NCBI RefSeq assembly: GCF_024502345.1
Contig: NZ_JALDNN010000001.1
Length of the DNA: 64,000 nucleotides
Strand: one strand, 5' to 3'
Source: Escherichia coli
GTDB lineage: Bacteria; Pseudomonadota; Gammaproteobacteria; Enterobacterales; Enterobacteriaceae
Each line of letters begins with the position of its first letter. Position 1 is the first letter of the stretch. The notes under the pieces were generated by a model. That model worked only from the letters and a program-made list of their open reading frames with translations. It was not told the DNA's origin and did not search any database. Below are positions 13,617 through 21,127 of the stretch, piece after piece. The position numbers and the translations under genes were made by a program.

Positions 13617-13654
13617 TCCCCTCGCCCCACCGGGGAGAGGGTTAGGGTGAGGGG
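13617..13654. repeat. GC-rich dispersed repeat (cccctcgccccaccggggagagggttagggtgaggggg); a second copy lies inverted at 21091..21127
   Basis: About 38 bp shared between two intergenic sites in this window; possibly a box C-type element (family name uncertain). Confidence 0.5.
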
Positions 13655-13705
13655 GAACCCTCGGCGCCATGCCAACATTCGCCAACATTCTCCCTCACTC
13701 TGACT

Positions 13706-15811
13706 TTAGTGCGCGCCTTTCGCCTGCGCCACGATCTCCTCGACATTTTCCGGCATCGGCTCATACGGCGTTTCTTTCGCCGTTGGCTTCGGATCTTTCA
13801 ATGCCGCAAGTGCCGTCTTAATCGAGAACAGTGCCAGAACCACCACGACCACCATAAAGAAGATGGTTAACCCAGCATCCAGACGGTTGTTGAACACCAG
13901 TTGCGCCAGTTGTGACTCAGTATACTGCGACGGAATATTGCCGCTGTCGATCATTGCCTGGAACTTGTTAGCAATCGCCAGGAAGCCGACTTTCGCATCC
14001 GGGCTAAACGCTTTCTGCCAGCCTGCGGTCAGGGTACAAATCAGCAGCCAGGCCGTTGGTACCAGCGCCACCCAAGCGTAACGTTGACGTTTCATCTTGA
14101 ACAACACCACGGCACAGAGCATCAGCGCCATCCCTGCCAGCATCTGGTTGGCAATACCAAACAGCGGCCACAGAGTGTTAATACCGCCCAGCGGATCGAC
14201 CACACCCTGATGGAGGAAGTAGCCCCACGCCAGCACGCACAGCGCTGTTGCCAACAGGTTAGCAGGCAGTGAATCGGTCCGTTTCAGGCCCGGAGAAACC
14301 ACGCCCAGCAGATCCTGCAACATAAAGCGCGCAGCACGCGTACCTGCATCCACCGCTGTCAGAATAAACAGTGCTTCAAACAGAATGGCGAAGTGATACC
14401 AGAACGCTACATCCATCATACCACCCAGCGCACCGTGCAGGATGTAAGCCATCCCCACCGCCAACGTCGGCGCACCGCCCGCACGGGAAATGATCGACTG
14501 TTCACCCACTTCGCTGGCAATCTGGTTGAGCGTATCCGGAGTAATCGCAAAGCCCCAGCTACTCACCACTTGCGCGGCAGAAGCGACCACATCCGCCGTC
14601 CCTGCCGGAGCCAGCACCGCCATCGGGCTGTTCATGGCGAAGTAAACGCCCGGATCGATGATACAGGCGGAAACCAGCGCCATAATCGCCACGAAGGATT
14701 CCATTAACATTCCACCGTAGCCGATAAAACAAGCCTGCCCTTCGTTCGCCAGCATCTTCGGCGTGGTGCCGGAAGAGATCAGCGCATGGAAGCCTGACAC
14801 CGCGCCACAGGCGATGGTGATAAACAGGAACGGGAACAGATTACCGGTCCATACCGGGCCAGTGCCATCGACAAATTTGGTCAGCGCAGGCATGGTCAGC
14901 GTCGGACGCATAATCAAAATGCCTACCGCCAGACCGACGATAGTCCCGATTTTCAGGAAGGTAGAGAGGTAGTCACGCGGGGCCAGCAGTAACCACACCG
15001 GCAGCACCGCCGCCACAAAACCGTAGCCCACCAGCATCCAGGTCAGCTGCACGCCGGTAAAGTCAAAGTACGGTGCCCAGGTCGGGCTTTCTGCCACCCA
15101 GCCGCCAGAGATAATGGCGAAAATCAGGAATACCAGACCGATGACCGACACTTCACCAATACGCCCCGGACGCAGATAGCGCAGGTAGATTCCCATAAAA
15201 ATCGCCAGCGGAATGGTGAACGCAACGGTATACGTTCCCCACGGGCTATGAGTCAGGGCTTTCACCACGATCATCGCCAGTACTGCAAGGATAATGACCA
15301 TGATCATAAAGCAGGCCACCAGCGCTATCACCCCGGCGGTTGGCCCCATCTCTTCTTTGACCAGCTCACCCAGCGAACGACCGTCACGGCGCGTAGAAAC
15401 AAACAGCACCATAAAATCCTGCACCGCACCGGCGAGAACCACCCCGGCGAGCAGCCAGATCATCCCCGGCAGGTAACCCATTTGCGCCGCCAGTACCGGA
15501 CCCACCAACGGACCTGCTCCGGCAATGGCCGCAAAATGGTGACCGAACAGCACTTTCTTGTCCGTCGGCACATAGTCCAGCCCGTCGTTATGGCGCACCG
15601 CTGGCGTCATACGCGTCGGGTCAACCGCCAGCACATTTTTGGCGATATACAACCCATAAAAACGGTAAGCGATCAGATAGATACAGACCGACGCCACCAC
15701 AATCCACAGCGCGTTGATCTGTTCCCCACGATTTAAAGCAATGTATCCCAGAGCAAATGCTCCCATTACAGAGAGCACTGTCCAGACGAGGTATTTCCCT
15801 GATTTGTTCAT
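13706..15811 (-). CDS. cstA: Carbon starvation protein A (peptide/pyruvate transporter), 701 aa
   Basis: ORF 13706..15811; polytopic membrane protein; MNKSGKYLVWTVLSVMGAFALGYIALNRGEQINALWIVVASVCIYLIAYRFYG... Confidence 0.93.
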   Translation of the reverse strand: MNKSGKYLVWTVLSVMGAFALGYIALNRGEQINALWIVVASVCIYLIAYRFYGLYIAKNVLAVDPTRMTPAVRHNDGLDYVPTDKKVLFGHHFAAIAGAGPLVGPVLAAQMGYLPGMIWLLAGVVLAGAVQDFMVLFVSTRRDGRSLGELVKEEMGPTAGVIALVACFMIMVIILAVLAMIVVKALTHSPWGTYTVAFTIPLAIFMGIYLRYLRPGRIGEVSVIGLVFLIFAIISGGWVAESPTWAPYFDFTGVQLTWMLVGYGFVAAVLPVWLLLAPRDYLSTFLKIGTIVGLAVGILIMRPTLTMPALTKFVDGTGPVWTGNLFPFLFITIACGAVSGFHALISSGTTPKMLANEGQACFIGYGGMLMESFVAIMALVSACIIDPGVYFAMNSPMAVLAPAGTADVVASAAQVVSSWGFAITPDTLNQIASEVGEQSIISRAGGAPTLAVGMAYILHGALGGMMDVAFWYHFAILFEALFILTAVDAGTRAARFMLQDLLGVVSPGLKRTDSLPANLLATALCVLAWGYFLHQGVVDPLGGINTLWPLFGIANQMLAGMALMLCAVVLFKMKRQRYAWVALVPTAWLLICTLTAGWQKAFSPDAKVGFLAIANKFQAMIDSGNIPSQYTESQLAQLVFNNRLDAGLTIFFMVVVVVLALFSIKTALAALKDPKPTAKETPYEPMPENVEEIVAQAKGAH

Positions 15812-15991
15812 AGTTGTTATCCGTGTGCGTGTCCATAGAGATGTTACATTTTGTTTCTATAACATCTTTGTACAATTTAACAACACGGCAACCATGTAAA
15901 TCGGAGTTGAAACCAATATTTAACTTAACAATGTTAACTCGATCACTCCGTTAACCGAGTTTTCCTGCAATCTCATTTAATTCTGTCGGGC

Positions 15992-16405
15992 TCATCCCAA
16001 AACTGCCGTACCCAGCCGACAAGTGCAGCAACGCCGCCCCTGTTCATCGAAAACGACGATTTCCCAGCTCTGATTTTGCCGCCCAAGATGCAGCGGCTGG
16101 CAGACGCCGCGTACCTTGCCTTCAGACACCGGGCGATGATGGGTGGCGTTAAGTTCCGTACCCACCACACACTGCCCGTCACGGGTCATCATAAATCCGG
16201 CCATCGATCCCAGCGTTTCAGCCAGCGCCGCCGACGCGCCGCCATGCAGCAGGCCAAACGGCTGATGAGTACGGGTATCAACCGGCATTTCGGCTTCCAG
16301 CACATCATCTCCCAGACGGGTATACACAATTCCCAGATGCGCCACCATTGTGTTATCGCTGGTGGCGTTCAGTTCGTCGAGCGTTAAATGGCGTTTCCAG
16401 ATCAT
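15992..16405 (-). CDS. entH: Proofreading thioesterase EntH (YbdB, hotdog fold), 137 aa
   Basis: ORF 15992..16405; [43 protein letters not shown]... Confidence 0.92.
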
Positions 16406-16407
16406 GC

Positions 16408-19635: not shown

Positions 19636-19644
19636 CCTCGCTCC

Positions 19645-20820
19645 TTAATGCAATCCAAAAACGTTCAACATGGTAGAAAGTTTGACGCCTGTTTCGCGCC
19701 ACTCACCCAACGGTGACGACGCAGGCACAATCCCCGCTCCGGCAAACAGACGCACCTGATTTTCCCGCAGCTTCGCGCAGCGGATGGTCACCACCCATTC
19801 GCCGTTACCTTCGCTGTCACACCAACCCACAATGCCGCCAAACAGTTCGCGGTCGAATGGCTCCAGTTCAGCAATAACCTGGGTCGCGGCCTGATGCGGG
19901 AAACCGCTCAGCGCGGGGGTTGGATGCAGCAGACAGGCCAGAGTCAGTGCGTTTTCTTGCGAATTCGCTTTACCTTCAAAGGGAGTTGCGAGATGCCACA
20001 GCGTCGGCGTGGTAATCAATTGTGGAGAGGAGGGAACGTGTAACTCACTACTGCGTTCGCGCAGTACCTCTTTCATCGCCTGAGTCACCAGTTCATGTTC
20101 ATGGCGATCTTTTTCTGACGCCAGCAGACGATTACCCGCTTCGCGATCGAGCACTTCATCCGGCTGACGACGCGCGGAACCGGCTAACGGAATGGAGCTA
20201 AAACGCTCGCCGTCTTTACGTAGCAGCAGTTCCGGGCTGGCCCCCAGCAGGACGCCACCATCAGCCAGCGGGACATGGAAGTTGTAACTAACCGGGTTTT
20301 GCGCAATCAACCGTTCCAGCAATACGCCACTATCAATGGCGGCGTCAGTGGTGATATCAATCAATCGTGACAACACCACTTTGTCGACCTGCGGCGTGGC
20401 GGTAAGTGCGGCGGCGCGGGCAACCATCTGTTCAAACGTGGTTTGTTCAGGAATTGCCTGGCGTTCCACCACGTTCAGCGACTGGCTGCGGGTAAAACGG
20501 CGGGCTGAGGTCTGTTTTTCCTGGCGGGAGAACGACTGCCAGGATTCGGGAATATACAGCGACGAAGGCTGACGTGGATCGAAGGGAATCGCCCCGACCA
20601 TCACCGGATTTTTGATGCCCTGCGCTTTGGCATCGGCAAACAGCGCGGCGAGTTTTTGCTGGAAGGGACTGTCGGGCGAATCCCCGTTCACAGCCGGTTC
20701 ATCGAAGCGGGCGAAACATCCTGACGTCGTAAAACTGCGGTACGGCGACATAAAGAAAAAGCGATTGGGCGCAAGTGTTGCCATGGTCTGCTGTACTTCC
20801 TCAGCCAGTGACGTATCCAT
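19645..20820 (-). CDS. entC: Isochorismate synthase EntC, 391 aa
   Basis: ORF 19645..20832; start refined to [30 protein letters not shown]... Confidence 0.93.
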
Positions 20821-20831
20821 ATCATCCTCCA

Positions 20832-20872
20832 CAAAATGATAAAGGCTTTAATAATGATTATCATTTATATTT
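20832..20872. promoter_or_regulatory. Fur box in the entC / fepB divergent promoter region (taataatgattatcatttatat)
   Basis: Close match to the Fur consensus GATAATGATAATCATTATC, immediately upstream of entC. Confidence 0.7.
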
Positions 20873-21025
20873 TCGGTCGCTAACCTAAAAGCAAACGCGC
20901 ACTATGTCAACTCTTGAGGTAACGCAATCTGCAACTCGGGGTTGCATCTGGTTGTGGTTACAATGAAAATGAGAAGCATTATTGATGGATTCGCATAAGC
21001 GCAATGTGATGTCCTGCGCCGTTCT

Positions 21026-21127
21026 GCCCCCTCTCCCTTCCAGGGTGAGGGCTGGGGTGAGGGTTAATGTTCGCACCAGTGCTGGCTGTTCCCCTCACCC
21101 TAACCCTCTCCCCAAAGGGGCGAGGGG
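21026..21127. repeat. Long GC-rich imperfect inverted repeat in the fepB 5' leader; contains a copy of the GC-rich repeat seen at 13617..13654
   Basis: ccctctcccttccagggtgagggctggggtgaggg ... ccctcaccctaaccctctccccaaaggggcgaggg can pair as a long stem-loop. Confidence 0.55.

Follow-up and report, generated by a model that had tools for sequence, protein, structure and literature searches.

The ent-fep region and its repeat copies

We analyzed a 64,000-nucleotide (nt) stretch of Escherichia coli contig NZ_JALDNN010000001.1 (hereafter, the window), which holds the ent-fep region in an orientation reversed relative to that of strain K-12. A short GC-rich repeat occurs in it three times: once in the spacer between cstA and ybdD and twice, as an inverted pair, in the leader of the iron-uptake gene fepB. 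All three copies are BoxC, also known as the PIT (potential intrastrand triplex) element or TM_ECO, a dispersed noncoding repeat of ~65 bp in E. coli and other Enterobacteriaceae. Around them, entH-A-B-E-C are all on the minus strand. The genes and repeat features that concern us are as follows.

13327-13524, minus strand: ybdD
13601..13668, plus strand: BoxC type A unit ("mm" subtype) in the cstA-ybdD spacer, placed by pattern match and by the tails seen in a 22-copy alignment
13706-15811, minus strand: cstA
20982..21167, plus strand: palindromic insertion of 186 bp in the fepB 5' leader that holds the BoxC pair, delimited by alignment of filled and empty sites
21029..21063, plus strand: BoxC type B-like unit, left half of the fepB pair, CCCTCTCCC-TTCCA-GGGTGAGGG-CTG-GGGTGAGGG, equal to K-12 TM_ECO no. 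8
21064..21090, no strand: spacer of the fepB pair, made of the overlapping 3' tails of both units and forming the apical part of the hairpin
21091..21126, minus strand: BoxC type A unit ("mm" subtype), right half of the fepB pair, CCCTCGCCCC-TTT-GGGGAGAGGG-TTA-GGGTGAGGGG, equal to K-12 TM_ECO no. 7 and already matched to the cstA-ybdD unit in a preliminary description of this DNA
21195-22151, plus strand: fepB

The preliminary description had reported a 38-bp repeat shared, in inverted orientation, by the cstA-ybdD spacer and the fepB leader. The similarity holds up, with the 38-mer placed at 13618-13655, one base off the start of 13617 given there. Specifically, 34/37 bases are identical between 13618-13654 (plus strand) and 21091-21127 (minus strand), and the three mismatches all fall within the first loop (GGT versus AAA). 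Beyond this core, 13601-13654 and 21091-21144 can be aligned without gaps, and over these 54 nt they are 83% similar. In addition, there is a third, diverged copy at 21029-21063 (plus strand) that had been overlooked. When the 21-mer GGGAGAGGGTTAGGGTGAGGG was sought with up to three mismatches, it was found at three sites in the window, including 21043-21063 (plus strand) within the diverged copy, compared to 0.00 expected from 100 shuffles; with the 34/37 identity and thousands of genomic recurrences, this rules out chance similarity of two GC-rich intergenic stretches. The diverged copy is the partner that, together with 21091-21127, makes up the larger imperfect palindrome previously described in the fepB leader. 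The arms of this palindrome (21023-21063 and 21092-21132) are 41 nt long, 76% complementary, and 28 nt apart.

Identity of the repeat family

The pattern CCCTCNCCC-N3-6-GGGNGAGGG-N3-GGGNGAGGG, which is the TM_ECO definition of Holder et al. 2015 (PMC4666352), is matched by all three window copies with 0 substitutions. The same authors equate TM_ECO with the earlier BoxC, which was rediscovered as the PIT element (PMC4666352), and an independent survey names BoxC among the known stem-loop families of E. coli (PMC2267715). Two K-12 elements in the published list are of direct relevance: no. 7, a type A element at 624579-624614, and no. 8, a type B element at 624676-624641 (Table 1 of Holder et al. 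2015, PMC4666352), which lie 67 and 130 nt from fepB (Supplementary Table S2, same source). The fepB copies of the window are sequence-identical to these two elements. The shared motif, its configuration, and its position at K-12 fepB were therefore already known, the repeat family having been described in the 1990s. The name BoxC is reportedly found in Bergler et al. 1992 and in the surveys of Bachellier et al., and PIT in Hoyne et al. 2000 from the Maher laboratory.

The window copies share with the published family its pattern, its type A (TTA) and type B loops, the inverted pairing of A with B, and dispersal as multiple intergenic copies. Furthermore, the founding BoxC copy near fabI (envM) can be aligned with them. 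The second loop of the type B unit at fepB reads CTG, as opposed to the typical CCG; nothing essential differs.

A genome-wide search, which the preliminary description had proposed, places the motif in a catalogued and almost entirely chromosomal family. Using 65 nt around the cstA-ybdD copy as a query against 5,426 complete E. coli genomes, we found BoxC at 72,734 places in 5,418 of them, with a median of 15 places per genome. Plasmids accounted for 27 of these places (99.96% were chromosomal), and every K-12 copy that we fetched was intergenic. One of these plasmid copies is an exact type A unit at 1627-1664 of the 155-kb E. coli plasmid NZ_CP074792.1. An Rfam scan of 13300-21500 (E <= 1) returned a partial match to REP (naRNA4) and sub-threshold matches to microRNA (miRNA)-like hairpins, and no family in it covers BoxC. 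By the preliminary description's own terms, its reading would fall if the motif turned out to belong to an annotated repeat family and to have no structure peculiar to the locus. This proved to be the case: BoxC is catalogued, the K-12 fepB pair is listed, and the same pair is present at other loci.

Anatomy of the unit and of the inverted pair

We aligned 22 BoxC copies, namely, those of the window and those from 12 K-12 loci, the founding fabI copy included. A 36-nt core lies between a 5' tail of approximately GYGCNC..CRGTC and a 3' tail of approximately GAACAGGCCGGCAC; the tails are inverted repeats of each other, and the whole unit is roughly 65 bp. In the cstA-ybdD unit, the 5' tail spans 13601-13618, the core CCCTCGCCCC-ACC-GGGGAGAGGG-TTA-GGGTGAGGGG spans 13619-13654, and the 3' tail GAACCCTCGGCGCC spans 13655-13668.

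Each unit consists of a C-rich block and two mirror-image G-rich blocks. The C block of each window copy can form 8/9 Watson-Crick pairs with the first G block, and 8-9/9 of the triads are allowed in the purine motif (8/9 pairs and 9/9 triads in the cstA-ybdD unit). The window copies satisfy the sequence requirement for an intrastrand purine-motif triplex, a structure that TM_ECO forms in vitro (PMC4666352). As plain DNA hairpins, single units on either strand folded no better than shuffles (z = -0.1 to -1.3) in ViennaRNA, which models duplex pairing only. Therefore, the duplex fold is statistically special only for the pair.

In the fepB palindrome, a type A and a type B unit are combined in the inverted arrangement that is standard for BoxC, and the palindrome is a recurrent form of the family because pairs at other K-12 loci align with it. 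K-12 has five such closely spaced inverted pairs, that is, fepB and four others. The alignment of those at fepB, ygfF-gcvP, and alx-sstT takes in both units, the 27-28 nt between them, and a right tail whose end reads TTTGTCAT, while hrpB-mrcB and lldD-trmL carry a variant form of the pair. The left ends of the composite copies align poorly. According to the published rule, close pairs always consist of one A and one B unit in inverted orientation (PMC4666352). The fepB pair follows it, with type A (TTA) on the minus strand and the type B-like unit (CTG) on the plus strand.

A derived insertion in the fepB leader

The fepB pair is polymorphic in E. coli. A 361-nt leader query was fully covered in 2,754 of the 5,426 genomes (51%), and the remaining loci (49%) are 186 nt shorter. 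Clone D i2, O157:H7, IAI39, and AVS0501, aligned with K-12 and the window, all have a clean empty site that reads GCATTA followed directly by ACTTCATTAATAACAGG. In the filled allele, 20982-21167 is inserted at this point, with TTA on either side. At the junction itself, GCATTA runs into ACTTCATTAATAAC when the site is empty; when it is filled, GCATTA is followed by an insertion that ends in CCCTTA and then by ACCTTATTAATAAC. The two TTA triplets are the following.

20979..20981, no strand: TTA directly left of the insertion, one copy of a possible 3-bp target-site duplication, seen at this one locus only
21165..21167, no strand: right-hand TTA, made of the last three bases of the insertion, the other copy of the possible duplication

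We also fetched the fepB loci of 80 other species of Enterobacteriaceae, among them Escherichia albertii, E. whittamii, Citrobacter, Klebsiella, Raoultella, Kluyvera, Enterobacter, Salmonella, and Kosakonia. In none of the 80 did the 1.2 kb ahead of fepB contain a BoxC unit, and most of them keep a distance of ~47 nt from the Fur box to the start codon, like the empty E. coli allele and compared to 233 nt in the window. For these reasons, the short fepB leader is ancestral, and the insertion is derived and dispensable.

One of the 80 species, E. whittamii, carries a 101-nt collapsed remnant at exactly the same site (~1076-1176 of its fetched stretch), its center reduced to CCCCTCG-aaggtt-gGGGCGAGGGG (CCCCTCGaaggttgGGGCGAGGGG). 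Its presence suggests an old polymorphism or one that was moved by recombination. Between E. whittamii and the window, the insertion arms are 82-85% identical and the flanking promoter and coding sequence 93-94% identical; the numbers are small, and the difference suggests that constraint on the arms may be relaxed relative to that on the flanks. In Citrobacter amalonaticus, an unrelated insertion of ~70 nt occupies the same leader position, between the Fur box and the Shine-Dalgarno sequence (~1073-1145 of its stretch). This part of the leader appears to be tolerant of insertions.

BoxC was also seen on the other side of the gene. In several Enterobacter, Lelliottia, Pluralibacter, and Leclercia genomes, a type B unit lies ~17 nt past the fepB stop codon (~2156-2264 of the fetched stretches), and in Leclercia adecarboxylata there are five units in direct orientation downstream of fepB, spaced ~95-125 nt apart (2203-2691 of its stretch). 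The fepB-entS spacer of the window is 3 nt long and holds no BoxC.

Control sites and predicted structure of the fepB leader RNA

Two known control elements of fepB lie in the same leader region as the BoxC pair.

20960..20990, plus strand: Fur operator of fepB, overlapping the -10 hexamer TACAAT at 20959-20964
21175..21199, plus strand: RyhB pairing site on the fepB mRNA (-20 to +5), which includes the GTG start at 21195 as well as the Shine-Dalgarno sequence AGGAAG and lies just outside the insertion end at 21167

The operator corresponds to the Fur footprint of Brickman et al. 1990, with coordinates as tabulated in PMC2189734 and converted to the window on the assumption that the record versions are offset by 776 bp. 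Pairing of RyhB at -20 to +5 is what represses translation of fepB by this RNA (PMC4666370). The insertion falls between the two sites, both of which are in ancestral flanking sequence. Conservation across genera distinguishes both sites from the BoxC pair, the Fur box being present in 78/80 species.

A consensus promoter scan called sites only near the entC Fur box and did not call a fepB promoter. We therefore infer a transcription start near 20971 from the published Fur footprint and the TACAAT hexamer. With that start, the insertion would begin ~11 nt into the transcript, and the leader would be ~224 nt long in the filled allele versus ~38 nt in the empty one.

The preliminary description had anticipated a stable stem-loop in the fepB leader that could affect translation or mRNA stability. 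Folding of 21015-21140 as RNA bears out the first part, predicting one long hairpin of -77.2 kcal/mol (z = -6.7), with 0/200 shuffles as stable. When the whole leader is folded (-98.8 kcal/mol, z = -4.8), the helix continues through the outer arms, 20983-21003 with 21134-21157. The hairpin would start ~13 nt from the 5' end of the transcript and so is not a 5'-terminal protective stem. As for translation, bases in the stretch that runs from the Shine-Dalgarno sequence to the start codon had a mean probability of being unpaired of 0.37 when the insertion was present, compared to 0.29-0.35 for two empty alleles and 0.41 for E. whittamii. Since this probability is as high in the filled allele as in the empty ones, we rejected occlusion of the fepB ribosome-binding site by the hairpin.

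The structure does not behave as a conserved cis-regulatory leader RNA either. It is not conserved across the 80 species and 5,426 E. coli genomes, and its matches to Rfam are to miRNA-like hairpins below threshold rather than to a curated family. A literature search for ties between the fepB leader structure and regulation, by RNase III or otherwise, yielded nothing on the structure itself; what it brought up was the RyhB site at the Shine-Dalgarno sequence and the convergent overlap of entS and fepB. Earlier experiments, summarized in PMC4666352, found PIT elements to be without promoter or terminator activity, without an effect on RNA polymerase, and without an effect in vivo, and genes that neighbor PIT elements show no functional bias (PMC4666352).

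Instability across BoxC loci

Polymorphism is not peculiar to fepB. All six BoxC loci that we examined vary in E. coli, by presence/absence or in structure, with full-length coverage of 51% at fepB, 75% at cstA-ybdD, 69% at alx-sstT, 56% at ygfF-gcvP, 54% at adk-hemH, and 65% at hrpB-mrcB. At alx-sstT in AVS0750, 75 nt of the pair have been lost between two direct copies of CCCTCTCCC, leaving a simple hairpin; the collapse at fepB in E. whittamii is of the same kind. Such a deletion is the "palindrome effect" of Holder et al. (PMC4666352). In BEC1-type strains, a different GC-rich insertion of ~290 nt replaces the alx-sstT pair. We sought target-site duplications at cstA-ybdD, hrpB-mrcB, adk-hemH, and alx-sstT and found none, the alternative alleles being replacements, collapsed copies, or decayed remnants. 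Because clean empty sites with duplications were not found at these other loci, the TTA...TTA arrangement at fepB is weak evidence for a transposition-like mechanism.

The cstA-ybdD copy and its REP neighbor

The cstA-ybdD copy in K-12 has one substitution in its third block (GGGTGAGAGGG), and this degeneracy accounts for its absence from the published K-12 list; the window and O157:H7 copies are intact. At least 80% of a query composed of REP, BoxC, and flanks was covered in 4,096/5,426 genomes (~75%). O157:H7 has the cstA-ybdD copy and lacks the fepB pair, from which it follows that the two loci acquired BoxC independently and have separate histories. Alleles of the cstA-ybdD spacer without BoxC retain tail-like and third-block-like sequence.

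A second repeat lies 12 nt from this unit and serves here as context only.

13547..13588, minus strand: REP (PU) element of a separate family, GCCGGATGCGGCGTGAACGCTTTATCCGGCCTAC, with a partial Rfam naRNA4 match (E = 0.009)

Like BoxC, REP and BIME elements are short, GC-rich, palindromic, intergenic, multicopy, and transcribed within operons. Their consensus (GCCGGATGCGGCG...), however, is unrelated to BoxC. The BoxC units contain no REP consensus palindrome and have no similarity to the REP element at 13547-13588, which is the sole naRNA4 match in the scanned stretch. Furthermore, the two vary independently: the spacer of EcN (phylogroup B2) has neither REP nor BoxC, and that of Z0117 has REP and lacks BoxC. 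The view that the repeat is distinct from REP/BIME was thus correct. REP elements have a partner transposase-like protein (RAYT/TnpA-REP), binding proteins, and mRNA-stabilizing effects; we know of no such partner protein, binding proteins, or stabilizing effect for BoxC. As RNA, the cstA-ybdD spacer is predicted to form REP and BoxC hairpins (-81 kcal/mol, z = -3.0).

We also noted CTCCCTCACTCTG at 13692-13704, immediately ahead of the cstA stop codon on the plus strand. This sequence complements the third block of the BoxC unit, and the two are paired in the folded RNA. The BoxC-less alleles of EcN and Z0117 have it too, with GAGAGTAAGGGGAA as its pairing partner. It may be what is left of an older partner unit, or else part of an ancestral hairpin that follows cstA.

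Interpretation

Our results are best explained if the repeat is BoxC and its insertion in the fepB leader is a tolerated passenger, with local instability as the main consequence, a reading to which we assign a probability of roughly 0.85. The cstA-ybdD spacer holds one type A unit beside an unrelated REP element, and the fepB leader holds an inverted composite of type B and type A units within a 186-bp palindromic insertion. Where it landed, the insertion has the Fur operator and the presumed transcription start upstream and the RyhB site, Shine-Dalgarno sequence, and start codon downstream. It would be transcribed as part of the fepB 5' untranslated region (UTR), where the pair probably folds on itself in vivo into a long autonomous hairpin that, in our models, leaves the ribosome-binding and RyhB sites as accessible as they are in strains without the insertion. 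Most likely, then, the insertion is a near-neutral passenger, and its main documented consequence is structural instability at the locus, through deletions between internal direct repeats, rather than regulation of fepB. A regulatory role for the pair in fepB translation or mRNA stability would appear to be neither required nor supported, because the insertion is missing from 49% of E. coli, BoxC is lacking upstream of fepB in the 80 other species, and predicted access to the Shine-Dalgarno sequence is not lowered.

Yet, an argument can be made against this reading on several grounds. The position of the transcription start is deduced from the footprint and the hexamer, and the neutrality of the insertion is presumptive as well. 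An imperfect duplex of ~45 bp in a 5' UTR is plausible as an RNase III substrate or as a stability element. In addition, the approximately 50:50 polymorphism and the related insertion in E. whittamii could reflect long-term maintenance, not drift.

Alternatively, BoxC may matter at the level of DNA structure. Single-stranded units could form intrastrand triplexes and the pair a cruciform, stalling polymerases and creating a rearrangement hotspot whose instability is itself selected. The triplex rule is satisfied by all three window copies in both Watson-Crick pairs and third-strand triads, triplex formation in vitro and raised variability around TM_ECO loci have been published (PMC4666352), and our six polymorphic loci with their internal deletions fit the same picture. 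Nevertheless, in vivo footprinting with dimethyl sulfate showed no guanine protection (PMC4666352), insertion, loss, or recombination of any repeat would give the same variability, and an adaptive role is the speculation of the authors who proposed it (PMC4666352). We consider this explanation possible if doubtful; it is compatible with a tolerated passenger.

Less probable is an origin of the 186-bp fepB element as a miniature inverted-repeat transposable element (MITE): a transposase supplied in trans would have moved it into the leader, its ends would be terminal inverted repeats, and TTA would be the 3 bp of the target that were duplicated. Such an origin would account for the clean filled and empty fepB sites with TTA on both sides, for the extended palindrome with its pairing outer arms (20983-21003 and 21134-21157), and for the similar composite copies at other loci, and the unrelated insertion in C. 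amalonaticus suggests a site that is permissive. ERIC/IRU and other enterobacterial MITEs are also imperfect palindromes of 100-200 bp that are transcribed, intergenic, strain-polymorphic, and able to form a long RNA hairpin. They have no sequence similarity to BoxC, however, and in BoxC composites, consistent termini and target duplications are at best putative: the candidate duplication was found at a single locus, the alternatives at cstA-ybdD, hrpB-mrcB, and adk-hemH are replacements or decayed copies, and the left ends of the composites are poorly alignable. BoxC copies are, moreover, almost entirely chromosomal, and to our knowledge, BoxC has no transposase. We regard this origin as unlikely.

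Finally, in the principal rival to a tolerated passenger, the hairpin could be a cis-regulatory RNA that some lineages have co-opted to tune enterobactin uptake, altering fepB mRNA stability or translation through RNase III cleavage, protection from 5' decay, or the access of Hfq and RyhB. Its predicted stability is exceptional, its deduced place in the 5' UTR is between the Fur box and the RyhB site, and it is common (51% of genomes); the outer arms still pair in the collapsed allele of E. whittamii, whose leader folds at -57.8 kcal/mol. On the other side, the insertion is absent from 49% of E. coli, and an intact copy is upstream of fepB in 0/80 other species; Shine-Dalgarno accessibility is not predicted to fall; a hairpin ~13 nt from the 5' end would not shield that end; the arms diverge faster than the flanks; Rfam holds no matching family; published tests of PIT elements revealed no transcriptional effect (summarized in PMC4666352); and the literature that we searched does not connect this leader structure with regulation. 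We give such co-option little credence.

The identification of the repeat is useful mainly as a corrective: so conspicuous a GC-rich palindrome, found where an iron-uptake gene has its leader, might pass for a dedicated regulatory structure, and here it is a copy of a known repeat. Its location is of modest interest, since the two known control sites of fepB have the insertion exactly between them in about half of the E. coli genomes sequenced. E. coli would accordingly have two classes of fepB leader, with 5' UTRs of ~224 versus ~38 nt; in the rather improbable event that the long form has been co-opted, regulation of enterobactin uptake would be specific to the carrier lineages, K-12 included. 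K-12 has the long-leader form, and many pathogenic lineages (B2 strains, O157:H7) have the short one, which calls for caution when posttranscriptional data on fepB are carried over from K-12 to short-leader strains. The polymorphism also constitutes a natural experiment on the effect of BoxC on expression.

Additional observations

Over positions 13000-22000 of the window, 0/5,426 complete E. coli genomes are more than 99.1% identical, and 57 reach 99%. The fepB leader by itself, however, is 99.7% identical to that of K-12-like strains. The strain of the window, or its combination of alleles, is therefore unrepresented in the genome collection.

A TTG-initiated open reading frame of 69 codons runs across the whole insertion at 20982-21191 (plus strand). 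Because this sequence is missing from half of the strains, the reading frame is almost certainly a by-product of the GC-rich palindrome.

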